From IMG/VR virus record IMGVR_UViG_3300028840_004168, positions 32,001 through 96,000 of that record: a DNA stretch of 64,000 nt. One strand, written 5' to 3'. Positions 46,918-63,033 of the stretch are shown here, piece after piece. The stretch is from a virus. Both the position numbers and the translations under genes were made by a program. Below the pieces are notes generated by a model. That model worked only from the letters and a program-made list of their open reading frames with translations. It did no database searches and was not told the origin of the DNA. Positions within the stretch are counted from its first letter, which is position 1. Each line of letters starts with the position of its first letter.

Positions 46918-48618
46918 CTATTTATTCTTTTCTATCGCTCTTGCTTTGGGAGCGCCTTTGTTTTTCATATTGTTTTGTCTTATTTTTCTTGCCTGATCAG
47001 CTTCATCTTTAGTAGCAGCTTCCTTGACCTTCTCTTTTTCAACATCTATCTCGCCATCTTTCTCAGTCACAGTTTCTTTTTCAGTCTCTATTTCTCCACT
47101 GCTGCCGATTGGAATTGCTTCATAGCTATTATCCAAACTATCAACAGGTATCTCAAGGAAATCTGCCATCTTCTCAATGCTAGGAACATTTTTAGGATAA
47201 AGACCAAGTTTGGCAAGTGCATCAACATTCTTAAGCGTCTGCATATAAATTTCTTTAAAGACAAGTTTTTTATTGAAATCCAGATTATCTATTTGAACCC
47301 TGACGGCTTTACGTTTCGCCACAGGCCAGTTATACTGAACAAGATCTTCGACAATGTTTTCTTCTATCCACGTCTCAAGTTCTTTGATCAGCTTCTCCTG
47401 CGACATCAGAAACATGTCTGCATGAACCGAAGCAACATTATAAGATCCAGAAGAAGAATCCTGCACGATTGTTTTTTCAGGAATTAACAAGCCACGCAGG
47501 ATCACGACTGACAGATGCACTATCGCATCTATAAACATATCGCCACGCCTCTGATCTTGTATTAAATCCACAGTCCACTTTGGATTGCCTTTCTCGCTTT
47601 CTTCAAAAGGCAATGTAACAGCAGAATTGTTTGCTATGTTTTGAACTATATCTTGCATCAAGGTAAGATTGTCATAATCTTCATTATTAATGCGAGTCTG
47701 CCCAGGAGGTGCAGTGCCCTTGATAGGCGGCGTTCCACGTCTTTCAAAATACTGAAGCATCCACAGATACATTAAGTTCTTCCAATACCAGTAAGCATAA
47801 ACACGGTTCAGCCTGGAAGCTCCAAAGTAATTGCCGAATTCAAATTCGTTTGTATACCACGCCGCTTTCGGCATCTTGATTGTGACCTTTTTGCCCTTGA
47901 CATTTTGGGTTATGCCTTTAAACCTCTGATGCCTGTTTAAAAGTATGGACACAGAAGTAGGATGCAGGCACTTGATGTATTTATATTTTATCAAGTCTCC
48001 TTTATAGTATGTAATAGGAGTGTCAGCAGCTTTATCATAACCAGTTATACGAGCGCCTTTTTCCATTGTAAATACTTTTTCAAAAGATGAAAACCCAAAG
48101 TCAATAGACAGGAGCGCATCGCTTATCAGCTGAGTCCACAGGGGCCTCAGTATCGATTGTATAGTGGCAGCTATACTTTTATCATCACATACAATACGCC
48201 AACTCGCAGCTATAATAGGATGTTTAATAATAGCCAGCCCTAGCGCTATCTGAGGATCTTTACGCATCTGCTCCAGAGTGCTGACAGGTATATCCATCTC
48301 TGGAGGAAGGCCTTCACCACTAATATAATAGCGCCCATAATCAAGCTTGCCGCCATACCTACCGTATTCCTTGTTCACAAGAGAAAGCCCCTTGAGACGA
48401 TCTGCGTTATATCTATTATTGATATTAGGCATTTGATCAGAAGTTTCTTTCAGGTAGGTAGTAAAGGCATCTCTGAGATCAGAGTGCATAAACTTACTAG
48501 CCAAGCTCTGTATCTCAGATCTTTCTTTGATGCTAACGTAATTTTCTACGTGTCCCTGTGCCTTTTTCATAGGGTAGTGCCCCCTTTGCATCTCTACCTG
48601 GAGATCTGCTGATGCCAT
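46918..48618 (-). CDS. Portal protein (DUF935/Mu gp29-like); start may be ATG 48570
   Basis: MRKDPQI...L, DALLSIDFGFS.FEKV, N.FG.SRL..VY..W..K, FERRGTP; follows TerL. Confidence 0.85.
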   Translation of the reverse strand: MASADLQVEMQRGHYPMKKAQGHVENYVSIKERSEIQSLASKFMHSDLRDAFTTYLKETSDQMPNINNRYNADRLKGLSLVNKEYGRYGGKLDYGRYYISGEGLPPEMDIPVSTLEQMRKDPQIALGLAIIKHPIIAASWRIVCDDKSIAATIQSILRPLWTQLISDALLSIDFGFSSFEKVFTMEKGARITGYDKAADTPITYYKGDLIKYKYIKCLHPTSVSILLNRHQRFKGITQNVKGKKVTIKMPKAAWYTNEFEFGNYFGASRLNRVYAYWYWKNLMYLWMLQYFERRGTPPIKGTAPPGQTRINNEDYDNLTLMQDIVQNIANNSAVTLPFEESEKGNPKWTVDLIQDQRRGDMFIDAIVHLSVVILRGLLIPEKTIVQDSSSGSYNVASVHADMFLMSQEKLIKELETWIEENIVEDLVQYNWPVAKRKAVRVQIDNLDFNKKLVFKEIYMQTLKNVDALAKLGLYPKNVPSIEKMADFLEIPVDSLDNSYEAIPIGSSGEIETEKETVTEKDGEIDVEKEKVKEAATKDEADQARKIRQNNMKNKGAPKARAIEKNK

Positions 48619-50431
48619 CGCTGTTTATTTCAATCAAACCTTTAAAGATAGAATTCATTTCATCAGCAAGCTTTGGAACTGAGCTTATATCGCTTAATCT
48701 GGAAGGCATCTTTTGAGCCAGCGGCGCAGATACACCTCTTGTTTGAGGCAAGTATTCTTTCCTTTGCGTCTTAACAACAGTAGGAGCAACAGCGTTCCAG
48801 TACTTAGGATCTTTCTGCGCTGGGGTTCCCATATAAGATGCCAATGCTAATGCAATAACTCTATCAGCATGATGGTATTTAAGCTCTCCAGGATCAACGT
48901 CATATCTGACGCTATTAAAATTAGTTATAATTCTTCTGATAGAAATAAGTTGTTTGACCAGTTCCATGTCTTCAGGGATAGCGATCATCTGCCCTTCAAA
49001 CCTGATCTTTAGGTTAGTGAACAACTGGTTCTTTAATACATTGGTAAAAGACAGCGTCTTGACACGGCTGCCAAACTCGTTCTGAAGCTGCTCTGCGAGC
49101 TGCATGCCGATGCCTGTTTCATCAATGCCTAACTTGATAATTGGAAATGTATTCATGTAATACTGAAGCTGCCTTCTCTGTTCTTCAAAAGGTATGTTCT
49201 TAAATGATCTTGCAAAAACAACTGTCTGAAGCATACCTTCTTCTTCTATTATTTTAAATTCAGCTGAATCTTTCCGTCTACCAACGTCATATCCAGCATA
49301 AAGATTTTTAGATATTTTACCCTTAGAAAGATGCTCAAGCAGAACATTTGCTTCGCCGCCACAATAGATAAACTTTTTGTGTTTATATTTTTGCTTGATC
49401 GGATAATCACGAATCTTGTAAGGAGCGCCAGTAAGGTCTTCCTGCCTGTAAGCAAACTTGCAATGGTTAATAACTTCAGGTGGGAAGAAAAAGCTGGCAT
49501 CGTCCAGGAACTTGCAGTTATATTCCTGTTCGAAAAAGTCTTCATCCATGTTCACAAAAATTTCCATAAGTATTTCTGTGCCAAAATGACCCACCACTTC
49601 ACGAATAGACATGCCTTCATCTATTGCTAGTCTGGCAACATGGATGTCATCTACCAGACGTGGACAATCATAAAAAGGAATATTTGTTATTTTAAATCTA
49701 AACTTGCTTGGATTTGTAGCAATGTTATAAAACTTGCCCCTGCTGCCCAGCGGCGTAGAACCGATAAACAAGCAGCCGCCGAAAGATATCATAGGGAGCG
49801 CTGCAACGTATATCTGGTCAGCCCAGGTATAATGGGCATATTCATCCAGGAACACGTCAGTCCTGCTTGTTCCTTTACCTCTTGGCTCTCTTTGTGGATG
49901 GCTAATCAGAGTTGTTCTTGTTTTATATTTTCCAGAAGTAGATTCAAACTCAAGGCGCTGGATGTTGTCAACGACCAGTTTCTTTTGCCATGCTGAAGGC
50001 AGGCTATCATAGCCCATCTTCGCATACAGTATTTTATTGTTAGCGTCATCTTGATTGTAGCTGACAAAGATAGCCTGATAATCATGGTATAAATGGGAAG
50101 ATGCAAGGCCACGCATTGAATAGGCATAACTGATGCCAACACGCCTTGACTTGTTTTGCAGGCTGAATACATTTACTTCATCGACAATCTCTCTGCCATA
50201 TTCATCCAGTACAAGCGGCTCTCCAGAAAGGCTTATCAATCCCTCATTCCATCCAGAAAGCGTTGTGAGCCAATTAGACATATCCTCTTCGCTAGGCTCT
50301 TTCTTGCTTACAACATAAGGTATTTGAGCTTTCTTATTGCTGTTAGCATAGACAGAGTCGAAGGGGTTATCTTTTAACCGAGGCTTTGGAGCCTTCTTGT
50401 TGCTGACTCTGATCTTCCGTTTATTCGGCAT
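48533..50431 (-). CDS. terL: Terminase large subunit (Mu gp28/Terminase_6-like)
   Basis: KSRRVGIS Walker A, VFLDEYAH Walker B, GSTPLG, FEQEYNCKF, GYDVGRRKD, GIDETGIG and HADRVIALALA nuclease motifs. Confidence 0.93.
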   Translation of the reverse strand: MPNKRKIRVSNKKAPKPRLKDNPFDSVYANSNKKAQIPYVVSKKEPSEEDMSNWLTTLSGWNEGLISLSGEPLVLDEYGREIVDEVNVFSLQNKSRRVGISYAYSMRGLASSHLYHDYQAIFVSYNQDDANNKILYAKMGYDSLPSAWQKKLVVDNIQRLEFESTSGKYKTRTTLISHPQREPRGKGTSRTDVFLDEYAHYTWADQIYVAALPMISFGGCLFIGSTPLGSRGKFYNIATNPSKFRFKITNIPFYDCPRLVDDIHVARLAIDEGMSIREVVGHFGTEILMEIFVNMDEDFFEQEYNCKFLDDASFFFPPEVINHCKFAYRQEDLTGAPYKIRDYPIKQKYKHKKFIYCGGEANVLLEHLSKGKISKNLYAGYDVGRRKDSAEFKIIEEEGMLQTVVFARSFKNIPFEEQRRQLQYYMNTFPIIKLGIDETGIGMQLAEQLQNEFGSRVKTLSFTNVLKNQLFTNLKIRFEGQMIAIPEDMELVKQLISIRRIITNFNSVRYDVDPGELKYHHADRVIALALASYMGTPAQKDPKYWNAVAPTVVKTQRKEYLPQTRGVSAPLAQKMPSRLSDISSVPKLADEMNSIFKGLIEINSDGISRSPGRDAKGALPYEKGTGTRRKLR

Positions 50432-52273: not shown

Positions 52274-52385
52274 AGCTCAAATAAAGAGCATCCAGCAGCT
52301 GTCTAAAGAGACAGGGCTAAAGCCTGCTGAGATCATACGCAGAGCTATTGACGCATACATTAAAAAGCACAGGAGAAAACCATGA
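52245..52385 (+). CDS. Second CopG-like RHH protein (46 aa, not in ORF track)
   Basis: MKRKNVHLTEAQIKSIQQLSKETGLKPAEIIRRAIDAYIKKHRRKP; ATGA overlap with the next gene. Confidence 0.8.
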   Translation: MKRKNVHLTEAQIKSIQQLSKETGLKPAEIIRRAIDAYIKKHRRKP

Positions 52386-53272
52386 GCAACGGAGACAACA
52401 GCATTGCCCCGACCAGAAGAATTATAATCCCTATATTCATTCCTTCCAATAGCTATGTAAAAAAAATAAAGAATATAGTCACAGATGCTGAATGGAATGA
52501 GATACGAAGAAATACATACAGAGAAGCTAACTACAGGTGTGAGATATGCGGCAGAACTGGACAGGACTTTGGCTACAACTACCCTGTGGCATGCAGTGAT
52601 GTTTGGGAGATAAACGATGATGAGAACAGGCAGATACTCACTGGCTTTGAAGCACTGTGTCCACCATGCACAGGTGCCAAGTTCTTCATCTTCATAGAGG
52701 CATCCAGAAGGCTGGCTATAATAAGCCATATGGCAGAAGTTAATCAGATAGATGTTATAGAAGCAGAGAGAGTTATCCGTAACGCCCATGTCAGATATAG
52801 AGAAAGGTCTAGCAATCCGCCTATGAATGTAGATATAGAACACCTGTGGAGACAATACAGGATAGATCCTTTTAACGATCATGAAGGAGAGCTTCAAGAG
52901 ATAAACAGCAGAACCCCATCCGAACTGGCAAGACAGGCTATATCCAGGGAAGGCATAGAGCTTTCTCCTACAATGCCTATAGCCGCAGAAGAAGTTCTGC
53001 CTGCAGACCCACCATCGCCTAGAAGAAGAACATCTCTGATGGCTGAAGACAACAGAGATCGTGTAGACATGGAGTCAAGCAGAGTAGCAATGACTCAAGA
53101 CCTGCTTGATGAATATCTGGAACGGCACGACAGAGTGATAGAAGAAGAAAAAAGAGATAAGAAAAAAACAAAAAATATGAAGACAAAAAACCCTGTTAAA
53201 AAAGAACCAGATCACATAACGACAGACCATATTAAAAGGAAGAAAAGAAAAATATGGCTGCCAAAAAATTAA
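52382..53272 (+). CDS. HNH-family protein with substituted catalytic residues and C-terminal extension
   Basis: EWNEIRR..Y..ANYRCEICG...ACSDVWE...ALCPPCTGAKF; ends KRKKRKIW. Confidence 0.7.
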   Translation: MSNGDNSIAPTRRIIIPIFIPSNSYVKKIKNIVTDAEWNEIRRNTYREANYRCEICGRTGQDFGYNYPVACSDVWEINDDENRQILTGFEALCPPCTGAKFFIFIEASRRLAIISHMAEVNQIDVIEAERVIRNAHVRYRERSSNPPMNVDIEHLWRQYRIDPFNDHEGELQEINSRTPSELARQAISREGIELSPTMPIAAEEVLPADPPSPRRRTSLMAEDNRDRVDMESSRVAMTQDLLDEYLERHDRVIEEEKRDKKKTKNMKTKNPVKKEPDHITTDHIKRKKRKIWLPKN

Positions 53273-53505
53273 ATCTAGCAAAGGTAGTGCAACAGGATTT
53301 CAATGCTGACAAATACGCCATTGCCAAAGGAAGAGCGCAGACAGGATTCAAAGGAGAAGTGTTGCCACTGGAAGCAAATATGATATCAGAATTTAAAGAA
53401 AGGAGATTAGATGATGAAACTTATTACCCACGCAGCAATTTTGACGATAACCTTTATAAAATTGCTGTTTACTTCGTCAAGCTCTTTATGGGACGGCGTA
53501 TCTAA
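53254..53505 (+). CDS. Hypothetical protein
   Basis: Coupled ORF. Confidence 0.5.
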   Translation: MAAKKLNLAKVVQQDFNADKYAIAKGRAQTGFKGEVLPLEANMISEFKERRLDDETYYPRSNFDDNLYKIAVYFVKLFMGRRI

Positions 53506-53532
53506 TTTAACACCATCAGGAAGGAGATAGCC

Positions 53533-53889
53533 ATGAACACATTTTTTCTAATCTTTAATATTGTTAAACTGCTCTGGCCTTTCATGGAGAAAGTCTTTGA
53601 CTATGTGTGGGCTAAATGGAAAGAGCACGATGAGATCAAAGCCAAGCATCTGGCAGAAGGCAAGTCTGAAAGTGAAGTAGATATATTGCTGGCTGTCTTC
53701 AAGGGAGATGCCAGGAATGAAATTATCAACATGATGAAAGAGCAGAACATCAGCGAGAAAGTAGCCAGGGCTGCCCTGGAATGTCTGTTGATCGCTATCG
53801 GCAAGCTGCTTGACAAAGGCAAAGATCCAGAGAAAATTTTCGGCAAAAAAAAGAAAAAAGATATTGAAGTTGAAAGCTCAACTGAGTAA
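53533..53889 (+). CDS. Hypothetical protein with hydrophobic N-terminus
   Basis: AAGGAG SD; helical. Confidence 0.65.
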   Translation: MNTFFLIFNIVKLLWPFMEKVFDYVWAKWKEHDEIKAKHLAEGKSESEVDILLAVFKGDARNEIINMMKEQNISEKVARAALECLLIAIGKLLDKGKDPEKIFGKKKKKDIEVESSTE

Positions 53890-53898
53890 AATATTTTC

Positions 53899-54080
53899 AG
53901 AGGCTGTTGGTCAATATTAATCCTTAAGGTCAAAGATTATTACTTATGAAGCGTCGTGACTTTTTTGGAATCATAATTTTATCAATCTTCTAATGTGGGT
54001 ATTAGAAGTAAATCAGTCAGTTTGTTCTTTCTATAATAAATAGTAGCTGACAAGCAATAACTGTATAGCCAACAGCCTCT
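53899..54080. repeat. 182-bp segment bounded by perfect 12-bp inverted repeats
   Basis: AGAGGCTGTTGG (53899-53910) and CCAACAGCCTCT (54069-54080), intergenic. Confidence 0.7.
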
Positions 54081-54098
54081 ACCTTTAAGGAGATCTAA

Positions 54099-54524
54099 AT
54101 GATAAATGGTATAACTAAAGAAATGATAAACAACGTGATGGCTGAGCTTAACGCCATCTTTAAAGAGATTGCAGGCATAGATGACATGCTGACATATAAT
54201 GAAGAGGCTGGCGGCGTAATGTTAGCCACTCCATTCCTGCTCTCTAAAGGACAAATAGAAGAGTTTGTCATAAGCCAGGGATGTGCCAACTTCAAAAGCT
54301 TTATCAAGCAATCAGGATTTGAACCAGAAGAAATAATAAAAGATATAATGTTCCTTGTACTGTCATCTCTCAACAACAACCTGATGACGATGATGCAGAA
54401 CTTCCCAGGAGACAGGTTTACACAGTATGTCGAATCGCTTGACAAGCTGGCAGAGATGGAAGCAGCTGAAGACAAGGAACAAAAACTAAGAGGGCTGCTA
54501 GGGACAAAGGAAACTGAAAACTAA
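54099..54524 (+). CDS. Hypothetical protein
   Basis: AAGGAG SD; helical. Confidence 0.65.
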   Translation: MINGITKEMINNVMAELNAIFKEIAGIDDMLTYNEEAGGVMLATPFLLSKGQIEEFVISQGCANFKSFIKQSGFEPEEIIKDIMFLVLSSLNNNLMTMMQNFPGDRFTQYVESLDKLAEMEAAEDKEQKLRGLLGTKETEN

Positions 54525-54691
54525 TGTCACTAATACATGTTTGCGAAAAATGTTTTAAAAAAATGAAGATACCGATGATCAGCATAACAATCGGCTCTAA
54601 CTGGACTTGCCCTGTATGCAAGAAAGACGGAGCCACAGTATTGATAGACTCATGCAAAGCGCTTAACAAGCTACTTTACGATGAGGATTAA
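54524..54691 (+). CDS. 55-aa zinc-ribbon protein (not in ORF track)
   Basis: MSLIHVCEKC...WTCPVCK...; TAATG overlap. Confidence 0.7.
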   Translation: MSLIHVCEKCFKKMKIPMISITIGSNWTCPVCKKDGATVLIDSCKALNKLLYDED

Positions 54692-54693
54692 AT

Positions 54694-54963
54694 ATGGAAA
54701 GAGACAGTGGAACAACATATACCACTGGCGATAACAGCAGCACCATCTCAGGCACAATAGTACAAACTATAGACGATTCAAATTCAGCCACAGACAGCTT
54801 CGCAGAAGTCAAAGGGCATGTGCTTGTCCAATACACAATATGTAGAAGACAGTATGAAGAAGCCGAAGAATGCTATCTTGAAAAAGAACCTGAAAAATAC
54901 ATCATAGAAGACGAAGACGCAGAAGATCAAATAGACCTAGATATCTCAAGGGAACCGCCGTAA
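54694..54963 (+). CDS. Acidic hypothetical protein
   Basis: GAGG SD; last gene before the terminator. Confidence 0.5.
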   Translation: MERDSGTTYTTGDNSSTISGTIVQTIDDSNSATDSFAEVKGHVLVQYTICRRQYEEAEECYLEKEPEKYIIEDEDAEDQIDLDISREPP

Positions 54964-55003
54964 TAGATATCCATGTTGACGATCCAAGAAGCTTAATCGA
55001 TGT

Positions 55004-55032
55004 TGAGTGGCTGGAAACAGCCACTCATTTTT
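55004..55032 (+). terminator. Intrinsic terminator
   Basis: TGAGTGGCTG-GAAA-CAGCCACTCA-TTTTT. Confidence 0.8.
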
Positions 55033-55035
55033 CCC

Positions 55036-55064
55036 TTGACTTTTGGTAAAAGCTTAGCTATACT
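55036..55064 (+). promoter_or_regulatory. Sigma70-like promoter heading the tagged-gene array
   Basis: TTGACT-N17-TATACT followed by AGGAG SD. Confidence 0.7.
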
Positions 55065-55092
55065 TTAACTTAGAACAATTTAGGAGCCAACT

Positions 55093-55434
55093 ATGAGTGA
55101 TTGGTATCATAGATCAAGCCAAGAATATAAAGAAGCTAATAGCTGCCGCAATGCCTCCTGGGACACTTGCTCAAATGACAATTCAAGCGATATAACTGGT
55201 GGAATAGGTTATGACGGTTATTCGTGGGAATCTGTAGATGCAGTGACTGTTGGCTACTCGCAATGCCACTATTGCGGATGTATGTGTATAGATTTTGATA
55301 TGCATTCTATTGGCGATGATAAAGTTATTTGTGATAATTGCTTCGATTACTTGTTTGAAATTTTACACACGCTAAACAGGAAAAAGAAAAGAATAATTGT
55401 AATTACAGAAAAAAAGAAGGCAAAGAATGATTGA
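55093..55434 (+). CDS. Zn-finger protein with basic C-terminal tail
   Basis: CHYCG...ICDNC; RKKKRII. Confidence 0.7.
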   Translation: MSDWYHRSSQEYKEANSCRNASWDTCSNDNSSDITGGIGYDGYSWESVDAVTVGYSQCHYCGCMCIDFDMHSIGDDKVICDNCFDYLFEILHTLNRKKKRIIVITEKKKAKND

Positions 55435-55714
55435 AACAATCTTCCCTGAATGCACAGGCTGCGGTTACTGCTGCCATAAAGCTCCATGCTCAACAGCACA
55501 AGAGCTCTACAACTGGCAGCTTAATTCTTGCCCTGAACTATTATGGTCAGAAGAGAAACAAAGATATCTGTGCGGATTGATGATGCGACCAGGAAAGGCA
55601 GGAGAGATATTTAGAGAAAAACTCTGTGCAGGCGAAGGCTGCTGCAGCAACCTTAACTCTTGGCACTATGATGTAAAGAAACGAGAACAGATCAAAGCAA
55701 AGGAGACAACGTGA
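55427..55714 (+). CDS. CxxCxxCC (YkgJ-like) metal-binding protein
   Basis: CTGCGYCC...C...CP.L...RYLC. Confidence 0.65.
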   Translation: MIETIFPECTGCGYCCHKAPCSTAQELYNWQLNSCPELLWSEEKQRYLCGLMMRPGKAGEIFREKLCAGEGCCSNLNSWHYDVKKREQIKAKETT

Positions 55715-55905
55715 TACGCATTACATGCATGATGAAAGACTGCATTTTCAATGTAGGAAATATGGTAAAGCATGCACACCATGTTATAGGATGCGGCAAG
55801 GTAGATCCAAATATAGAAGTAGATATACGAATGAAGACATCTTATTGCAGAAGCCACGAAAAACCACAAGAAGAGGATGGAACAAAATATGATTCTAATA
55901 GATGA
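55711..55905 (+). CDS. Small Cys-rich (DUF1540-like) protein
   Basis: C.M.DC.FN...C....I.V...C spacing. Confidence 0.45.
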   Translation: MIRITCMMKDCIFNVGNMVKHAHHVIGCGKVDPNIEVDIRMKTSYCRSHEKPQEEDGTKYDSNR

Positions 55906-56332
55906 AAAAGGTAAAATGGTCAGCGATAAAAGCGAGAGGGAGCTGCACGCATTTGCTAAAAAGATAGGTATAAGTAGAGATTGGTTTAACAAGCCGCCTA
56001 AAGATGTAAGGATACCGACAGCGGCTTCTTACAGGCACTACGATCTCATTACCAAAGCCTTGATGGACAGGGCTATACAGATGGGAGCAGAAGAAGTGCC
56101 GACCAGAGAGCTTATCTATCGTGCGTGGTGGCATAATAAGCACTTGAAATCGACAAGGTGGAAGCTGCGGCAGGTCGCTAGGGAAGCGGCAAAGCAAGTA
56201 AAAATAAACGCTGAAGCAGAAGAAAAATCTGTAATTACAGAAAAAAAATCGGAGAAGAAGAGTGCCAAAAAAGCGAAAAAAGCTAGACCGAGAAAAAAAG
56301 ATAGAGTTGGTAAGAAGGTCAAAAAAGCATAA
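55877..56332 (+). CDS. DUF4031-like protein
   Basis: ELHAFAKKIG..R.WF...HYDL......RAI..GA.EV. Confidence 0.75.
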   Translation: MEQNMILIDEKGKMVSDKSERELHAFAKKIGISRDWFNKPPKDVRIPTAASYRHYDLITKALMDRAIQMGAEEVPTRELIYRAWWHNKHLKSTRWKLRQVAREAAKQVKINAEAEEKSVITEKKSEKKSAKKAKKARPRKKDRVGKKVKKA

Positions 56333-56633
56333 GACCCATGTGATAAACGGCAGCTGGACAATGCTTCTTAATGGGTTTAGGCCAACTATACCTGCATCTA
56401 TAGACTGCAACGACCCTATCATCATGGCTAGAGGACTGGTAGATAATTCTGAATGCAGCATTACTCTATGCAAGGCTGCTATAAGAGTAAAAGACGATAT
56501 AGAATCTTTCACAGGATCACCAGATGAGATCACATGTATGGCATGCAAGAAAATATATTTCAGGCACAGGCATAAAGACTACAATAAATTTTTAATCAGC
56601 ATCAAGAAAAGAAGAAGGGCGATAAGAGTATGA
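56262..56633 (+). CDS. HCCC zinc-finger protein with basic tail
   Basis: THVI...TLCK...ITCMAC; KKRRRAI. Confidence 0.65.
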   Translation: MPKKRKKLDREKKIELVRRSKKHKTHVINGSWTMLLNGFRPTIPASIDCNDPIIMARGLVDNSECSITLCKAAIRVKDDIESFTGSPDEITCMACKKIYFRHRHKDYNKFLISIKKRRRAIRV

Positions 56634-56902
56634 ACCTCAGAAGAAAACTAAGAAGTCTTAGAGAATTTGCTATCTGCAAAGACGGCATCTGGTTTCCATA
56701 TAAAGGAGATGTCATTCTATACGTATTTCCCTGGCGCAGAGATAACTGCGTGTTTGTCAGCGTGCTGTCTGAAGGCGGCTTTACCAGCCTGAAAGAGATA
56801 GACAGGTTCTGGAGCCAGTTTGCAGAGCTCCAAAACAGCGAAGGGCTCACTAGTTTGGAAGATGTAAAAAAAGAATTAGACATAGGAGATGATGATGGAT
56901 AG
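56630..56902 (+). CDS. Hypothetical protein
   Basis: ATGA overlap. Confidence 0.55.
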   Translation: MNLRRKLRSLREFAICKDGIWFPYKGDVILYVFPWRRDNCVFVSVLSEGGFTSLKEIDRFWSQFAELQNSEGLTSLEDVKKELDIGDDDG

Positions 56903-57236
56903 AAAGAAGCCGCACCTTGTTTTTAACGTCCTTATCTCAACTACAGATGGAAGCATGTATTGTGACGCTACCTGCCTGGAGATGGATCTGGTTGACGCTG
57001 GAACTACTAACGACCTTGACGCATTAGCACGAGATATGGCTGACATCATCCAAACACAGCTGCAAGAAACACTGGAAAATGACAATGTCGAGAATGCATA
57101 TAGAGGCGCACCTTTATGGCTATGGTTAAAATGGTCTAAAGCTGGAGCCCCTACTAACAGAATTATAAGAAAGATCATAGCAGACGGCTTGCACATGTTT
57201 GATATAGAAATATTGTTTTATGAGGATCTGGTTTAA
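56889..57236 (+). CDS. HicB-like (N-domain only) protein
   Basis: NVLI...ATCLEMDLVDAG......L...I...L.E.....GAP..LW.KW. Confidence 0.55.
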   Translation: MMMDRKKPHLVFNVLISTTDGSMYCDATCLEMDLVDAGTTNDLDALARDMADIIQTQLQETLENDNVENAYRGAPLWLWLKWSKAGAPTNRIIRKIIADGLHMFDIEILFYEDLV

Positions 57237-57580
57237 TGGTTAAAAAAATAACATTAGAAGACGTAGCTGAAAGCATGCACAAGGTTGACTTCTACAGCCC
57301 TGACAGAATATATAACTGCTTCAAAGGAATGACTGGAGAGTTGCATGTGATAAACTCTGTATTGCCTATGCTCGGCAACAACAGGAGGATAGTAGCCCAT
57401 TGCGGCGTTGAGCAAGAAGTCCATCCGTTATCAGAAGCAGAGATTACTAAAGTAGCAGCTGAGGATGCCACAGTGATATGTAAAATGTGCAGAGACGTAT
57501 GTAAAATATATTTGCAGCCAAAGCATAGACCGCTGACAGTCAGCACCAGAAAGAGAAGAAAGTTCAACTATGGTAAGTAG
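57236..57580 (+). CDS. HCCC zinc-finger protein with basic tail
   Basis: LHVI...AHCG...ICKMC; RKRRKFNYGK. Confidence 0.7.
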   Translation: MVKKITLEDVAESMHKVDFYSPDRIYNCFKGMTGELHVINSVLPMLGNNRRIVAHCGVEQEVHPLSEAEITKVAAEDATVICKMCRDVCKIYLQPKHRPLTVSTRKRRKFNYGK

Positions 57581-57896
57581 ATATTTAAATTCAATAACAG
57601 TGGATATTAAGATGTATTCATGCTTTACGTTTGAAAGAATACATCACATAATCAAGACAGCTGATGCTGATGGGCACGACTCAATTGCACTCAGGGCGTA
57701 TTGTACTGCAGGATGGCTGATAGAAAAAGCGCATGCAGATAAAGTCATAAAAGTAGTCAGCAGCACAGATCCACAGCTATGCCCTCATTGCCTGATGGTA
57801 GCTAATACTAAGATAGAAATAAAAGAATATGATCTGAAAGATATATTTCCACCAGCAAGAAAACGGAGAAGGTTTAACTATGGTAACAACGATTAA
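57570..57896 (+). CDS. HCCC zinc-finger protein with basic tail
   Basis: HHII...AYC...PQLCPHC; RKRRRFNYG. Confidence 0.7.
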   Translation: MVSRYLNSITVDIKMYSCFTFERIHHIIKTADADGHDSIALRAYCTAGWLIEKAHADKVIKVVSSTDPQLCPHCLMVANTKIEIKEYDLKDIFPPARKRRRFNYGNND

Positions 57897-58695
57897 TGAA
57901 TGGGAACATGGGCCTATGTATGACGTATTCTACGAAGATGGACATTATCACGTCATTTCAGAAAGACAAGTAAATGTCGATGATGGTCGCATAGATGAAT
58001 ATATGGTATCAGTATGCGGCAGGCCTCGGCATATTAATCCAGAGATAGATGTAAATAGCCAAACCACCAATATACGCAGAGATCATCCTTCGCTGTGCAC
58101 CGCATGCATGCAGCCTGACAGAATGATATCCAGGCGAATGAAAGAAACTATAAATAAAGTCAACGTTGATCAAGTAATAGATTGCAAGCCGATGGTCAAG
58201 ATGGCACGCATACTCAACCTTTCCGACAGGGAAGTCCTCATATCAGGAGAGGCTGGCCCTGGCGCATCTATGCTTGTCAAGATTCAACCAGACTCTATAG
58301 TTACTCTGTCTATGCACGATTACAACATATGTAAGAAGTCAGATGCCTTACAGGGCATGATACACGAAAGATACGTAGAGATAGATATATGCGACCACTT
58401 CTTTACTTTCAACCTGCCAGAATCTACTCAAAGGCATATAATAGGCACGATAAAAGAATCGAAAGACAGCTATGATGCCAACACCCACAAGCTCGTGCGC
58501 TCTGCAATCTCCATGTGTGAAAATCACTACATGGAAATGAGCTCACAGCTGATAGGAGAGGCATTCAGGCACGTATGGTATAAACATCCAGATCTGTGCT
58601 ACACTTGTAAGGTAATCTATAACAGGTTCCACAAGGGCAGAGAAGAAGTAAGCAGCCGTAAGAAGAAACGCAAATTCAACCAATTCAAAGGATAG
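57880..58695 (+). CDS. Double HCCC zinc-finger protein with central ARILNL domain and basic tail
   Basis: YHVI..VCG..HPSLCTAC; ARILNLS; RHII..SMCE..HPDLCYTC; RKKKRKFNQFKG. Confidence 0.75.
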   Translation: MVTTINEWEHGPMYDVFYEDGHYHVISERQVNVDDGRIDEYMVSVCGRPRHINPEIDVNSQTTNIRRDHPSLCTACMQPDRMISRRMKETINKVNVDQVIDCKPMVKMARILNLSDREVLISGEAGPGASMLVKIQPDSIVTLSMHDYNICKKSDALQGMIHERYVEIDICDHFFTFNLPESTQRHIIGTIKESKDSYDANTHKLVRSAISMCENHYMEMSSQLIGEAFRHVWYKHPDLCYTCKVIYNRFHKGREEVSSRKKKRKFNQFKG

Positions 58696-59227
58696 ACAAA
58701 CTATGTCAAACAAAGACGATGATATAAGACTTATAATTAAAAAAGCCAGGATATTAAGTCTTACTGATTATGCTGTCTATTACAATTCAAATAATGACGT
58801 ATGCCTTCTTAAACTTGAGCGAGATCATCTAGCAATCATAAAAGAAAACAAATATAACGCCCTGTGTATTGAAGCACCACAATTCTCTAATGATATAGCA
58901 AGAGGCGCAGTAGAAGTAGAAGTGTCAGACTACTACTACACTTATTTTCATGATTACGACAAAGAAAAAATAAGACACATTATTAAAAAATTTGTAGATG
59001 TAGAAAAAGATGGCGAGATGCGCAAATTAGCTGTGCCATATTGCAGTGAAGCAAAACCATCAATAAGAGAAGAAAAAAACACATGGAAAAGATTTAAATA
59101 TTCTTACTGGAGACATCCAGATCTATGTGTATTGTGTAATACTGAATTATGGAAAGACAAAGGAATAGCAGAAAAAGATTTTATATTAAAATCAAATAAA
59201 CGCAAATTCAACCAATTCAAAGGATAG
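58666..59227 (+). repeat. Identical 30-bp direct repeat at two consecutive gene ends
   Basis: aaacgcaaattcaaccaattcaaaggatag at 58666..58695 and 59198..59227. Confidence 0.9.
58703..59227 (+). CDS. ARILSL domain + HCCC zinc finger + basic tail
   Basis: ARILSLT; RHII..PYCS..HPDLCVLC; KRKFNQFKG. Confidence 0.75.
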   Translation: MSNKDDDIRLIIKKARILSLTDYAVYYNSNNDVCLLKLERDHLAIIKENKYNALCIEAPQFSNDIARGAVEVEVSDYYYTYFHDYDKEKIRHIIKKFVDVEKDGEMRKLAVPYCSEAKPSIREEKNTWKRFKYSYWRHPDLCVLCNTELWKDKGIAEKDFILKSNKRKFNQFKG

Positions 59228-59230
59228 GCA

Positions 59231-59719
59231 ATGGCACACATCGATTATAAAATGGTAATCTATAAAGAGCCCAACGGCGATATCCAGGGGCATGTGCTGG
59301 AGATGGGCATGTCTACAGCCAATACAGAAAAACCATATAGAGAACTCACAGGAGAAGTGCTGTCACTGCTGATCAACGGCACTATAGAAGCTATAGCCGA
59401 AGAACTTATCAAAAATTTTGATGACCATGCAGAGCAACTAAAAAGAGTAAAAGAGGCTTCAAGCCTGGAAGAAGATCGTCCAGATCACCCTTATATCAAC
59501 CATATCACCAGGAGAACAGATTTTCATTTAGATAGATTCAAGCTCTTCAGCAAAGTAGCGCACAATCCTATAGCTACTATCTATAAGCCTGTAACACACG
59601 ATCTCACAGGAACGTTTCTGATTAGCCTCACAGCTTACAACGGAATACCAGATAATAAAAACATGCCCAAGCCTAAAAGAAGAAAGAGAAATATAAAAGT
59701 TGACAAAGTCAAATTATAA
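59231..59719 (+). CDS. HicB-like protein with basic tail
   Basis: YKMVI...GHVLEMG; PIATIYK; KRRKRNI. Confidence 0.55.
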   Translation: MAHIDYKMVIYKEPNGDIQGHVLEMGMSTANTEKPYRELTGEVLSLLINGTIEAIAEELIKNFDDHAEQLKRVKEASSLEEDRPDHPYINHITRRTDFHLDRFKLFSKVAHNPIATIYKPVTHDLTGTFLISLTAYNGIPDNKNMPKPKRRKRNIKVDKVKL

Positions 59720-59779
59720 GAGGTAAGATATACATGCTCCATCAGACAGATAGACAGACAGAAAAATAAGGAGAAAGAC

Positions 59780-60205
59780 ATGATAGTAAAAATTAAGACA
59801 GACAAAGACCGCTTTTTAATCATCGACAACCTTTCCCATGCAGAATATGATCCAATAGGCTATGTAGCATTTGATGCTGGAGGCAGATGCACCTGCTCAC
59901 CAGATAGCGCATGCCGTGAATGCAGAGGGGCAGCGTTTAAGGTGGGCCATGACATCAACTTGAGCAATGCAAGAGAAGTAGAGAACTCCTTCAGAAAAAT
60001 GTATGCCCATGTAGCGATGCCAAATCTGGATCTATGGCCTTCTGCTGGACATGCAGACAACGACCATGCTCATTATTTTTATAACACTATGTATCTGTTT
60101 AAAAATGATGGCACTGAGATAAGCATCATCTTTGATACAGTGGCATATATCTGTAACGACAACAGCAAGACGCTTGAGAAAGTGGATTGTAGAAATAACT
60201 TTTAA
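59780..60205 (+). CDS. Hypothetical protein
   Basis: AAGGAG SD; CTC..C..C insert. Confidence 0.65.
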   Translation: MIVKIKTDKDRFLIIDNLSHAEYDPIGYVAFDAGGRCTCSPDSACRECRGAAFKVGHDINLSNAREVENSFRKMYAHVAMPNLDLWPSAGHADNDHAHYFYNTMYLFKNDGTEISIIFDTVAYICNDNSKTLEKVDCRNNF

Positions 60206-60254
60206 CCAATAGCTCTAAACTGTCTGGTGGAGCTAAATAACAAAGGAGCCAACA

Positions 60255-60551
60255 ATGAACGAACACGCAGGCCTTATGATCCAAGACCTTAAAGAAAAAA
60301 TAAAACTATTAGAAACTGAAAACAAAGAACTCAAAGAGCACGCCAAAGAAGCCGAAGCAGCCGCACGCACGTACAAGCAAAGATGGCTTGATTCAATGGA
60401 ATCGCTGCAGCACATCGAATACAAAATAGACAAGATGGATGCGTGGCTGACAGGGATGATTGTGCAGAGCGAAACAACAGATAGGCTAAGACCCGATCAC
60501 GCCAAGCTATTCAGAAAAACAAGAACTAAGTTCAAAGAGCTTGGATTATAA
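60255..60551 (+). CDS. Coiled-coil hypothetical protein
   Basis: AAGGAG SD; heptad pattern. Confidence 0.6.
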   Translation: MNEHAGLMIQDLKEKIKLLETENKELKEHAKEAEAAARTYKQRWLDSMESLQHIEYKIDKMDAWLTGMIVQSETTDRLRPDHAKLFRKTRTKFKELGL

Positions 60552-60586
60552 TATGTAATTTCAGAAAAAACAGGAGATATGACTCA

Positions 60587-61069
60587 ATGCTCATTCACTT
60601 CGTCTACAATATAATTATACTTAACGATAAATCAGAATACGCAGCCATCTTCGCACACACTATAGAAACAGGCAGCACTCACACTATCTCATCAGAGCCC
60701 ACAGAGCTCACAGATGAGGTTTTAAGCGCTTTTATCTACCATGTGCCTATACGTATCAAAGAGAGCTTCATACGGTCTGTAAACGGATATTTTGACGCTT
60801 CAGGCGACTTTGATTTAAACGACTGGCAGGCTCAGACTAACCACAGACATCTCGTTGGCTTTACAGGAGAGCTGCATGTAGAAATGTTAAAGACATATTT
60901 AAAGTGCAACCAGCCGCCACTAGCCACAGTCTACAAGACAGCATACCATACCAAGATAGGCGAAGTTAATATGCAGTTCAACTTCCACGACTGCACTAAA
61001 GAAGGGTTTAAAGGAATCAACCCTGCCAGAAGAAAGAAACGCAGAATCAGCTTTGCAAAGGAGAAATAA
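60587..61069 (+). CDS. HicB-like paralog with basic tail
   Basis: YNIII...AHTIETG; PLATVYK (cf. 59231); RRKKRRISF. Confidence 0.55.
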   Translation: MLIHFVYNIIILNDKSEYAAIFAHTIETGSTHTISSEPTELTDEVLSAFIYHVPIRIKESFIRSVNGYFDASGDFDLNDWQAQTNHRHLVGFTGELHVEMLKTYLKCNQPPLATVYKTAYHTKIGEVNMQFNFHDCTKEGFKGINPARRKKRRISFAKEK

Positions 61070-61400
61070 TATGGAAGCGATACAGCAGATCACTTTTACA
61101 GAAGCACTGACAGGCATCGGCATAGCTGTCATGCTCATAGCCGTCCTGGTATTCATAATGGTCAGGACATCATTATCGCTGATGCAGTCAGGAGAAGACG
61201 AACGCAAGCCGCTGTTAAACGTGGTCATATTCGGCTTTGCCATCCTGCTAGGCGTATTCGTCTGTGACAAGGTCATAGCGCTGCATACAGACATCTTGTC
61301 TAAAGAAGAGTCGATAAGTGTTTTTAATTTAATCAAAGACATCAGCCTGATAGTCTTCGGATACTACTTCGGAGTCAGCAACGGCAAAAACAAAGGATAA
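61053..61400 (+). CDS. Three-TM membrane protein (likely ATG 61071)
   Basis: Three hydrophobic segments; IVFGYYFG. Confidence 0.65.
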   Translation: MQRRNNMEAIQQITFTEALTGIGIAVMLIAVLVFIMVRTSLSLMQSGEDERKPLLNVVIFGFAILLGVFVCDKVIALHTDILSKEESISVFNLIKDISLIVFGYYFGVSNGKNKG

Positions 61401-61403
61401 CCA

Positions 61404-61931
61404 ATGCCCGAAAAAGACTATGAACAGCTGAAAGACACGCTCAAACAAGGATTTACCATGAAGGCCAGGATAATGAACATGGCCCACCAGAAGCTCGTAT
61501 ACCGCATAGATGACTCCCACGTAAGCCTGATCATAGAAAAAGATAACATGACAGTCCTGACGATGGACGAATGGTACAAATGGATGAAGCAAGTAGGCTT
61601 TGACGGCGATGTTATGTCAGGCAGGCTCAAGACAGAGATCGTCAAATACTTCTACACATTCAACGTGGCCTACGGCTGCGCCTGCCATATAATCAAATAT
61701 ACAGAGGAACGAGACTACGGCCTCCAGCCCATACCCTACTGTGATGCAGCGATGCACAACACTATATTCCTGGCAAGCATGGGCGATGCACGCCTGCACG
61801 AAGTATACGAAGACAGTCCAGACATCTGCCATGACTGCCTCAAAAAAATAAAGCAAGACCAGGAAATAGAAGTCACAGCAACAAAAAAACTTAAAAAGAA
61901 ACGTTTATTCAACCAGTATAAGGCAAGATAA
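61404..61931 (+). CDS. ARIMNM domain + HCCC zinc finger + basic tail
   Basis: KARIMNMA; CHII..PYCD..SPDICHDC; KKKRLFNQYKAR. Confidence 0.75.
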   Translation: MPEKDYEQLKDTLKQGFTMKARIMNMAHQKLVYRIDDSHVSLIIEKDNMTVLTMDEWYKWMKQVGFDGDVMSGRLKTEIVKYFYTFNVAYGCACHIIKYTEERDYGLQPIPYCDAAMHNTIFLASMGDARLHEVYEDSPDICHDCLKKIKQDQEIEVTATKKLKKKRLFNQYKAR

Positions 61932-63019
61932 ATATGGTAGCATATAGCACTCCAGCATTAAAGCAGAAAAAAGACCTGGCTGAATACCTTAACAGCATAT
62001 ATGTTGTAAAGGCACGTATACTTAACCTTACAGAATTAGGCTATCACTATAAACACGAAGAAGAAGAGATTGAGTTCCCACCAGATTCACTGACGATCTT
62101 AAATTCAGAGCAATGGATGGGCATCACAGCCAATACCAACTTCCTCAATAGAGTCCAAGAAGGCATATTTAAAGTAGACATAGCCAACTACTATATCTGT
62201 GTCAGGTACGCAGAGGGCAAGACATGGCACATAGTCAAAGAAGCCCACCTGACTAATATAGGCGGCTACACGCCTATATGCCTGTGCGATCCAGACAACC
62301 CTGCAGGCATAGTGACATTCCAGGCATCAGCCCATAGCAGGATGAATGAGATATACAGCAAAAACCCAAACCTCTGCCGCATGTGCCACAACATCGCCAG
62401 GGGGATAATACCGGAAGCAGATACAGAAGGCATGCGCATAAAGCCCAAAAGAAAACGTCTATTCAACCAGTATAAGGCAAAATAATGAACATAACCAGAG
62501 TCAAAGAATACATGGAAGAGACTGTTGCCAAGAAGATAAGGATACTTTGCAATACAGCAACACCTATATCTTTCGTATTACATGGCAGATACTGGCATCC
62601 CACATTCAACCCAGGATCTACAATCACAGTCAATATGGAAGAATATAACGCCCTGCTTGCACATGAAACTTTCGTGAGGCTCATAAAAACCAAAGGCCTT
62701 ATCATAGAAGAGGCTGTCTATTATACCTGCTTCAACCCCAATCAAGACTCGAACAGCCTCTGGCATGTCATCAAAGACGTGCAAACGGCAAGCGAGACGT
62801 TGTCTATATATAGACCCAGGCCCCTGTGCAATGAAAAGATGGATCACAATATGAGGGCATCGGAAAAAACGCCTACACAATGGGTCACACGGCTCCAGCA
62901 CAACTGCCCCGACATCTGTATGAAGTGCAGAGTAATCATGGGCAATATCTTAAAAGAAGCCGAAGACAAGCAAACAGACCCACCAGCGGCAGCTCGTAAG
63001 AAACGTTTATTCAACCAGT
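61896..63019 (+). repeat. 22-28 bp direct repeats at three consecutive gene ends
   Basis: aagaaacgtttattcaaccagt at 61896 and 62998; 27/28 match between 61899..61926 and 62453..62480. Confidence 0.85.
61934..62485 (+). CDS. ARILNL domain + HCCC zinc finger + basic tail
   Basis: KARILNLT; WHIV..PICL..NPNLCRMC; KRKRLFNQYKAK. Confidence 0.75.
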   Translation: MVAYSTPALKQKKDLAEYLNSIYVVKARILNLTELGYHYKHEEEEIEFPPDSLTILNSEQWMGITANTNFLNRVQEGIFKVDIANYYICVRYAEGKTWHIVKEAHLTNIGGYTPICLCDPDNPAGIVTFQASAHSRMNEIYSKNPNLCRMCHNIARGIIPEADTEGMRIKPKRKRLFNQYKAK

Positions 63020-63033
63020 TCCTGAAAAGCTAG
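62485..63033 (+). CDS. Paralog with N-domain + HCCC zinc finger + basic tail
   Basis: KIRILCNT; WHVI..PLCN..CPDICMKC; RKKRLFNQFLKS. Confidence 0.75.
   Translation: MNITRVKEYMEETVAKKIRILCNTATPISFVLHGRYWHPTFNPGSTITVNMEEYNALLAHETFVRLIKTKGLIIEEAVYYTCFNPNQDSNSLWHVIKDVQTASETLSIYRPRPLCNEKMDHNMRASEKTPTQWVTRLQHNCPDICMKCRVIMGNILKEAEDKQTDPPAAARKKRLFNQFLKS

Follow-up and report, generated by a model that had tools for sequence, protein, structure and literature searches.

A recurrent C-terminal basic-hydrophobic peptide on unrelated proteins of a tailed phage, and its possible role in docking to an AAA+ module

Why should protein after protein encoded by one block of phage genes carry nearly the same short peptide close to its C-terminus? 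The question is raised by a window of 64,000 nucleotides, i.e., the whole stretch of DNA that was analysed, consisting of bases 32001-96000 of a 129,910-bp phage contig (IMG/VR record IMGVR_UViG_3300028840_004168), and especially by a plus-strand block located at 52.3-63.0 kb of that window. A first-pass annotation had ascribed to ‘about 12 early proteins of unrelated folds’ found in this block a shared C-terminal run of basic residues followed by phenylalanine or isoleucine. This motif, for which we use here the term ‘tag’, is real and is more widespread than had been claimed, with 36 carriers over the genome as a whole. It is strongly enriched at C-termini, is found on members of unrelated families, and is subject to selection at the protein level. 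As considered below, it may be a docking peptide that is native to a phage-encoded AAA+ ATPase module and that has been extended, in this phage, to some 30 additional proteins. Coordinates are those of the window unless described as genome coordinates.

Genes of the whole contig were called using a codon-usage log-odds model in combination with dynamic programming, resulting in 195 genes. A strict regular expression, [KR]{3,}[^KR]?[MLIA]?[FI], as scored in the last 25 residues, matches 33 of the 195 proteins, versus 3.0±1.7 (maximum 8) given shuffling of whole proteins and 9.7±2.7 (maximum 19) given shuffling of tails only. That scan, which had been proposed as a check on the motif, thus comes out in its favor. 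Per residue, matches are 16 times commoner in tails than in protein interiors. Curation then removed two spurious open reading frames (ORFs) and one doubtful case while adding six variants with interrupted basic runs, which gives rise to the 36 carriers (18% of the proteome). All twelve of the C-termini quoted in the first-pass annotation are found in ORFs that begin where it had placed them.

The curated tags read as [KR]4-x-[F/I]-x-hydrophobic and are situated 8-21 residues from the protein end. Anchored at the first F or I (position 0, which is F in 24 and I in 12), positions -5 to -2 are K or R in 29-34 of the 36, position -1 is a spacer (M, K, R, or L), position +1 is often N, position +2 is F, Y, or V, and position +3 is often G, with 3-15 residues coming after the first hydrophobic position. 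Tags are approximately 10-15 residues in length, and only a few are truly terminal (those of the genes starting at 56262 and at genome 7445). The tag, that is, is a short linear peptide which follows a variable, disordered linker near the C-terminus, rather than being a fold. Its carriers have a median cysteine content of 3.9%, versus 1.1% for untagged proteins; many of these Cys-rich proteins probably bind zinc, and most tagged proteins look like small metal-binding domains that are without known relatives. No description of a phage-wide C-terminal tag was found in the literature. Tag-like strings, i.e., a basic run and then I/F-x-V/Y, are seen as well at the N-termini of the large terminase (48533-50431, minus strand), of a DUF3150 protein (L002:6312-7364, minus strand), and of a 147-amino acid (aa) protein (L001:15874-16317, plus strand). 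The motif may work at N-termini too, or instead these may be chance matches.

Carriers are not spread evenly. Twelve are found in the window, 20 at genome 113.6-128.6 kb, and 4 at genome 4.6-9.1 kb. None of the curated 36 are found over the 75 kb between genome 9.1 and 84 kb, which hold the replication core and virion genes, and within the virion block (genome 32-83 kb) the number of tagged genes is 0.

Do these carriers represent many kinds of proteins, or instead one protein many times over? Within the window the twelve carriers reduce to five families, so that there the earlier count overstates the diversity, while genome-wide the claim of several unrelated folds stands. Seven of the twelve belong to a single zinc-ribbon family (family B), which consists of five members by BLAST and seven by alignment, all in the window, and which has in common H..C..PDxCxxC. 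In gene order, and on the plus strand as are all of the window carriers, its members are two short proteins, at 57236..57580 (114 aa, tag 57548-57577, aligning with the C-terminal half of family B) and 57570..57896 (108 aa, tag 57858-57893); a 271-aa protein with an N-terminal extension (57880..58695, tag 58657-58692); and proteins of 174 aa (58703..59227, tag 59198-59224), 175 aa (61404..61931, tag 61893-61928), 183 aa (61934..62485, tag 62447-62482), and 182 aa (62485..63033, tag 62995-63030), with the last of these also the last gene of the plus-strand block. Family C is a pair of paralogs, also in the window, of 162 aa (59231..59719, tag 59675-59716) and 160 aa (60587..61069, tag 61028-61066).

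The remaining three window carriers stand alone. One is a 296-aa HNH endonuclease (52382..53272, tag 53234-53269), the HNH body having been proposed earlier and now borne out (phrog_5200, 8e-26); a HicB-like body, proposed for another carrier, finds no support in Pfam or PHROGs. A second is a Cys-rich 113-aa BLAST singleton with an I-type tag (55093..55434, tag 55378-55431), for which there is no Pfam or PHROG match. The third is a 123-aa singleton (56262..56633) with its tag at the very C-terminus (56604-56630) and with an uncertain start, its ORF overlapping the ORF of 55877-56332 by 71 nt. A 118-aa protein at 53533..53889 (plus strand; putative tag 53845-53886) also matches the strict expression, with five K and then D-I-E-V, and is kept outside of the curated 36 due to the acidic residues which follow; its tag is doubtful.

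Outside of the window is family A, consisting of 15 Cys-rich proteins as grouped by BLAST with tags cut off. With tags removed, families A, B, and C are unrelated to one another (hhalign probability below 1%). There also are 14 curated singletons, as compared by BLAST only, which include the HNH protein, a p97/Cdc48-like AAA+ ATPase, and a DUF3150 protein. Given these unrelated families along with such singletons, the tag is present on several unrelated folds. That all carriers could be one large paralog family consequently is rejected, although within the window that explanation does hold for 7+2 of the 12.

Within families the tag is retained as bodies diverge: It is present in 15/15 family A and 7/7 family B members at approximately 20% body identity, with the cysteine scaffold and the tag being all that these families keep. 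AlphaFold2 models (pLDDT 71-72) suggest a helical Cys-rich domain for family A and an alpha/beta body plus C-terminal CxxC helix for family B, with the tag in both following a low-confidence linker; in the family B representative (61934, mean pLDDT 72) the tail too is of low confidence. Foldseek comparison of both models with the PDB resulted in nothing below E=0.07. Among 5.8 billion clusters, only this phage's own proteins were found for family B. An equivalent search for family A, over billions of proteins, found its own members, one repeat protein, and one 139-aa relative, the last ending in a basic run and then isoleucine. A 369-aa fusion (L001:14551-15660; genome 124551-125660, plus strand) begins with a Cys-rich domain of family A, carries the tag internally near residue 114, and continues as a long extension ending in an acidic tip, D-D-D-I-P-F, of the single-stranded DNA-binding protein (SSB) type. 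A protein encoded at genome 20201-21271 (minus strand) ends similarly, in E-E-D-I-P-F. With SSB-type tips on two proteins in addition to the tag, this phage therefore appears to use two different C-terminal hub peptides.

Could it be the DNA rather than the peptide that is being conserved? The first-pass annotation had itself allowed for this, i.e., that the motif might reflect overlap of a purine-rich ribosome-binding site (RBS) with the next gene. In practice the basic run is within Shine-Dalgarno distance of the next start in just 4-5 of 27 translationally coupled carriers. The genes with runs 2-11 nt from the next start codon are those starting at 52382 (where there also is overlap between the run and both the RBS and the ATG of the following gene, at 53254), 56262, 57236 (7 nt from the next ATG), 57570, and genome 118015. 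In 22 of the 27 the run instead precedes the next start by 19-55 nt, and for 8 carriers no further gene follows within 60 nt. The tag of the gene starting at 62485 cannot be an RBS, as there is no plus-strand gene within 1.7 kb downstream. Codon choice tells a similar story. The synonymous codon variation that had been noted among tags is seen, and CGN codons make up 38% of tag arginines versus 27% genome-wide, which argues against a purine constraint. Between families, identical tag residues share the same codon at a frequency of 0.409, versus 0.424 as expected from codon usage. Tags thus have not been copied as DNA, and spread by recent copying or recombination of gene ends is rejected. Within families, by comparison, tag DNA identity is 54-62% versus 32% in the adjacent linker. 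Selection, that is, acts on the peptide, as had been claimed, and by spacing, CGN codons, and between-family codon use an RBS or purine-run by-product is rejected as a general explanation.

Where, then, might such a peptide have originated? Among the carriers are two proteins of a gene set which, as judged from sequence, is an instance of a phage module consisting of a Ycf46-type AAA+ ATPase, DUF3150, DUF1257, and DUF2997. In this phage the AAA+ gene is found at genome 7445-9049 (Pfam AAA, 2.5e-28) and DUF3150 at genome 6312-7364 (minus strand; Pfam, 1.1e-20), with both products ending in polybasic I-type tags. DUF1257 (genome 5791-6252, 2.7e-20) and DUF2997 (genome 5589-5777, 1.3e-15), as detected with hidden Markov models (HMMs) built from annotated homologs, are untagged, and the module then continues with two tagged small proteins. 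Gene set and order are the same in loci L006-L009. The ATPase domain is nearest to the D2 domain of p97/VCP/Cdc48 (E ~1e-56), p97/Cdc48 being a classical unfoldase/segregase. A search of the literature for DUF3150, DUF1257, and DUF2997 found nothing functional.

The module has a tail of its own. Among AAA+ homologs 87 of 119 (73%) end in [RK]x[ILVMF]x[ILVMFAY], versus 11 of 159 untagged proteins of this phage. These tails typically are R-[KQ]-L-E-[IMV] at the very end of the protein, with the versions found in the closest homologs more basic. In two related phage contigs (L007 and L008), the same DUF3150-AAA-DUF1257-DUF2997 module is found inside the same replication genes, and three adjacent proteins (one of 136-166 aa, DUF3150, and the AAA+) end in a polybasic run plus [IV][VIL]R[KR]K, while approximately 20 neighboring genes do not. 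Across 80 IMG/VR loci, as recovered with an AAA+ alignment and with DUF3150 partners identified by iterated HMM search, nearly all of those partners end in R-x-hydrophobic-x-hydrophobic, often with the same tail as the AAA+ protein of that locus. After de-duplication to 19 loci, the module motif is present in 12/19 AAA+ and 12/19 DUF3150 proteins versus 7.8% of other ORFs, and paired AAA+/DUF3150 tails are more similar than permuted pairs (11.26 versus 8.56±0.77; z=3.5; 5/5000).

Elsewhere this tail stays largely with the module. In a complete 181-kb module-bearing phage (G001), given the same gene caller and expression, 4 of 214 proteins match, of which 3 are adjacent module proteins. The closest relative, a 68.8-kb fragment, displays a small excess at most (6/88 versus 3.0±1.6), one match being a distant gene whose end equals that phage's module tail. 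From homolog tails along with the restriction to the module seen in G001, L007, and L008, the tag may be viewed as natively a module tail that has been extended here to approximately 30 additional proteins. This presumes that the tag of this phage and the module's co-varying tail are the same kind of thing, and equating them is a judgement based upon sequence. In six IMG/VR loci (L013, L053, L058, L059, L062, and L079), a third small protein, of 83-200 aa, also ends in the locus-specific tail. At a prophage-like locus (L011, 6001-7554 and 9321-10832) the AAA+ ends in R-T-I-H-M and a 503-aa neighbor, not DUF3150, ends in K-R-K-I-H-T-D-D-D, a further case of tails that match within one locus. 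In a recurrent association, a small radical-SAM/Fer4_12 gene adjoins the AAA+ homolog of a contractile injection system (CIS) locus (L010, on a 3.65-Mb bacterial contig) and is near the AAA+ homolog of L011, and a radical-SAM gene also is found a few kb from the module in L008.

What might the tag do? The reading that is preferred here, tentatively and at somewhat less than an even chance, is that it is a docking peptide for the AAA+ module, working much as does the p97-binding VBM (VCP-binding motif) though on a larger set of proteins. The ancestral home of the tag would be this widespread module, in which R-x-hydrophobic-x-hydrophobic forms the end of the AAA+ protein, of DUF3150, and usually of a third protein. 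That peptide would bind one shared receptor site in the machine, for which the acidic N-terminal domain of the AAA+ protein is the most likely candidate. This phage would then have attached the module's peptide to approximately 30 further small, mostly Cys-rich proteins as well as to the HNH nuclease, with the tagged proteins probably clients or adaptors of the machine, i.e., adaptors bringing targets to it, substrates that it remodels, or its regulators. The binding itself, the receptor, and the fate of the tagged proteins all are things that we infer. Of the ‘docking or sorting code’ suggested by the first-pass annotation, what stands is a protein-level code on unrelated proteins; its list of destinations (capsid loading and co-ejection, a phage compartment, a shared host partner, or a protease) was guesswork, and evidence points instead to the phage's own AAA+/DUF3150 module.

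That the N-terminal domain could be the receptor is suggested, and only suggested, by charge. Across 50 loci, tail charge is inversely correlated with AAA+ N-domain net charge (rho=-0.39, p=0.005), and is not correlated with that of the ATPase domain, DUF1257, DUF2997, or the DUF3150 body. DUF1257 or DUF2997 as the receptor is the less likely alternative. This phage, with a +5 tail, is among the most basic, and its N-domain, at -10 per 100 residues, is tied for the most acidic of the set. In every phage examined the module is situated among replication genes, and this, along with sigma-70-type promoters in the window block, points to an early or middle intracellular role rather than to virion loading.

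A number of observations weigh against docking to the AAA+ module. The charge correlation is modest, is one of five tests, and is without phylogenetic correction. Since the AAA+ protein also bears the tail, a receptor located in its own N-domain would be awkward, as binding then would have to be in trans or auto-inhibitory. AAA and AAA_lid_3 are the only domains that Pfam assigns to the ATPase, so its N-domain is not recognised as CDC48_N; that domain matches only Ycf46-family models in the Atlas. Likeness to the VBM consequently is a matter of ‘works like’ rather than of membership. When AAA+ tails are permuted against those of any neighbor, the signal is weak (z=1.6), and it is the homology-defined AAA+/DUF3150 pairing that was used instead. 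Module tails in most phages possess 1-2 basic residues and often an acidic one, whereas here there are 4-6 basic residues and a preference for F, and only 24 of the 36 tags fit the loose module expression. Lastly, the expansion is seen in one genome, with no close relative found that could serve for comparison of orthologs.

The strongest rival, if itself unlikely, is that the tag is a generic nucleic acid-binding tail, or ‘molecular sled’. Through four consecutive basic residues, proteins would be held electrostatically to DNA or RNA while still being able to slide along it, with aromatics stacking on bases or holding a partner. In this way many small proteins, nucleases included, would become concentrated on the chromosome of the phage or host. 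A peptide of adenovirus, pVIc, shares this register (K-R-R-R, then a single residue, and then F at the C-terminus), and its KRRR core alone binds DNA (dissociation constant ~200 nM, low salt) and slides, largely independently of sequence (PMC4797294). Sliding calls for at least 3-4 consecutive basic residues (PMC4797294), which the tag possesses; many carriers are Cys-rich and probably zinc binding, one is an HNH nuclease, and the N-terminal strings of the large terminase and DUF3150 could be read in the same way. Two HNH endonucleases of another type also end in a polybasic run and then L-x-x-Y, approximately 10-20 residues before the C-terminus. One is encoded on a 14-kb contig that is unrelated (L005:7781-8122) and the other by this phage (L003; genome 104716-105075, minus strand). 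Basic tails may be common in that HNH family independently of the module. What a sled does not account for is that module tails of other phages mostly are not polybasic, often including an acidic residue, and still are R-x-hydrophobic-x-hydrophobic and co-varying. Because such tails keep the motif and co-vary between two proteins, a protein pocket rather than DNA would seem to be the target. Sliding also would not call for F, N, and G to be strictly conserved behind the basic run, as they are in families A and B, and the core DNA enzymes of this phage (Pol III alpha, DnaB, primase, RecA-like protein, and SSB) are without the tag.

Decidedly improbable is that the tag is read by a host factor. 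That factor could be an AAA+ protease of the host, e.g., ClpXP, for which the tag would be a degron or tether that limits many early proteins to a brief, programmed lifetime, or else the tag could be a docking motif for some other host hub. In the phage Mu transposase, MuA, ClpX recognises the C-terminal degron RRKKAI (PMC8138137, Table 1). Several I-type tags resemble it, the product of the gene at 56262 ends three residues after a near-identical string, and the near-consensus sigma-70-type promoters of the window block would be compatible with early expression. Tags, however, are located within the last 8-21 residues with 3-15 residues past the first hydrophobic rather than being strictly terminal, and a host receptor leaves unexplained the native, co-varying AAA+/DUF3150 tail of phages with presumably different hosts. 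A MuA-type degron is possible for the few terminal tags.

Less probable again, indeed very improbable, is a virion-loading signal, with the AAA+ protein a Pvc15-like loader by which small tagged proteins are threaded into the particle and so come to be co-injected. One AAA+ homolog (42% identical, with the family tail) does lie in the CIS locus between baseplate-hub and spike genes, and in Photorhabdus virulence cassettes (PVCs) an AAA ATPase is required for loading of cargo that bears a terminal disordered signal (PMC11495950). PVC signals, however, are N-terminal and 50-70 residues long, which the tag is not; Pvc15 has tandem AAA domains; and no other protein of the CIS locus has the AAA+ tail. 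In all phages examined the module is among replication rather than virion genes, the virion block here is tagless, and 36 cargo species would be unprecedented.

Membrane targeting, i.e., a polybasic stretch with aromatics resting on anionic phospholipids of the inner membrane, is hardly credible. Known electrostatic anchors, among them the effector domain of MARCKS and the C-terminus of MinD, display the same physicochemical pattern of clustered basic residues along with Phe. The nuclease, the soluble AAA+ protein, and DUF3150, however, are unlikely membrane proteins; there are only two or three hydrophobic residues, with G-G after many tags, so that no amphipathic helix is expected; and the non-basic module tails of other phages argue against a lipid target. 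Next to negligible is a by-product of nucleotide constraints (purine-rich RBS or enhancer, or recombination junctions) combined with paralog inheritance, since, even with 24 of the 36 carriers from three paralog families and with the few runs close to a next start noted above, the spacing and codon use described are at odds with it, the reading frame is always the K/R frame, and virion operons are just as tightly coupled yet tagless.

The genomic setting is that of a tailed phage. The contig's ends overlap by 144 bp, and the assembly is circular or permuted. The large terminase, portal, major head protein, and tail genes occupy the minus strand of the window, and a 2846-aa ORF within the tail block (17880-26420, minus strand), presumably a tape measure, implies a very long tail. 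Upstream of the window is the replication block, with Pol III alpha, DnaB, a Toprim primase, a RecA-like protein, and two metallophosphoesterases. The plus-strand block, divergent from the terminase operon, consists of small, tightly packed genes, with near-consensus sigma-70-like promoters in its few intergenic gaps and a terminator at 55004-55027. It stops at 63033, which is followed by about 0.7 kb of weak ORFs only, a minus-strand terminator-like hairpin (63534-63515), and then small minus-strand genes up to 64000. DNA matches to this phage were absent among 50,697 phage records, and neither its major capsid protein nor its AAA+ protein, each as a single query, returned matches from IMG/VR.

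If docking to the AAA+ module is taken a step further, then this phage would possess a p97-like unfoldase along with some 30 fast-diverging, tag-bearing, zinc-binding adaptors, each for a different target (e.g., host defence or housekeeping complexes) that is delivered, via the C-terminal plug, for disassembly. That elaboration is speculative and rather unlikely. If true, however, the adaptor repertoire would be a viral counterpart to the substrate-receptor families of eukaryotic ubiquitin ligases or to p97 cofactors, and it would provide a first function for the Ycf46-type AAA+/DUF3150/DUF1257/DUF2997 module. More generally, eukaryotes make central use of short linear motifs by which many unrelated proteins are connected to a single hub, and in phages such motifs are hardly documented. 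Here one peptide on 18% of a proteome may tie two orphan expanded families, genomic ‘dark matter’, to a widespread, uncharacterised AAA+ module, thereby turning approximately 35 hypothetical proteins and one DUF module into a single, directly testable hypothesis. The co-varying AAA+/DUF3150 C-terminal peptide, as seen across dozens of viral loci, also is a concrete structural clue to module assembly, independently of this phage, and, if portable, the tag could serve as a tool for recruiting proteins to an ATPase.

How, finally, does the tag compare with known systems? That a linear motif can recruit unrelated proteins to an AAA+ ATPase is known already; what is new is the scale, along with the viral setting and the connection to an orphan module. 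p97/Cdc48 recruits unrelated cofactors by means of short, basic motifs, and the VBM and VIM of these cofactors come closest to the tag. The VBM, with consensus EhRRRRLxhh, binds the p97 N-domain and docks unrelated cofactors (PMC5389986). Like the tag, it consists of four basic residues and then hydrophobics, found on several unrelated proteins, and the tag fits this residue pattern, as a pattern match only. The VBM, however, is helical, need not be at a C-terminus, and is bound in the Nn-Nc cleft of CDC48_N, a type of receptor cleft not recognised in the phage AAA+ protein, whose N-domain is family-specific. Here, too, the ATPase itself carries the tail, and binding by the tag is putative.

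The SspB adaptor possesses a C-terminal ClpX-binding peptide. This peptide and the MuA degron similarly are short, basic-hydrophobic, and C-terminal, follow a flexible linker, and tether proteins to an AAA+ unfoldase, and one of them is phage-encoded. They differ in being found on single proteins rather than on a fifth of a proteome, in involving a host ATPase, and, for the degron, in being at the very end of the chain. Viral pVIc is identical in register (four basic residues, one residue, and Phe), is C-terminal, and carries cargo (PMC4797294), but slides on DNA and is released by proteolysis, whereas phage module tails elsewhere mostly are not polybasic. Pvc15-dependent signals of extracellular CISs likewise are terminal, disordered, and found on unrelated payloads, with an AAA ATPase helping to read them and with a homolog of the phage AAA+ protein present in a CIS locus. 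Those signals, however, are N-terminal, 50-70 residues in length, and read with a tandem-AAA ATPase, and their destination is the tube lumen (PMC11495950).

Parallels drawn by the first-pass annotation with the T4 capsid-targeting sequence, with type IV secretion signals, and with the SV40 nuclear localisation signal hold as likenesses, i.e., short sorting peptides on unrelated proteins and, for the localisation signal, the same basic core, and are unsupported as memberships. The T4 sequence is an N-terminal peptide, found on virion-internal proteins, that is cleaved by the prohead protease, whereas the tag of this phage is C-terminal and is borne by no gene of the virion block. Type IV signals and the nuclear localisation signal, for their part, serve a secretion system and an importin, respectively, neither of which this phage has.

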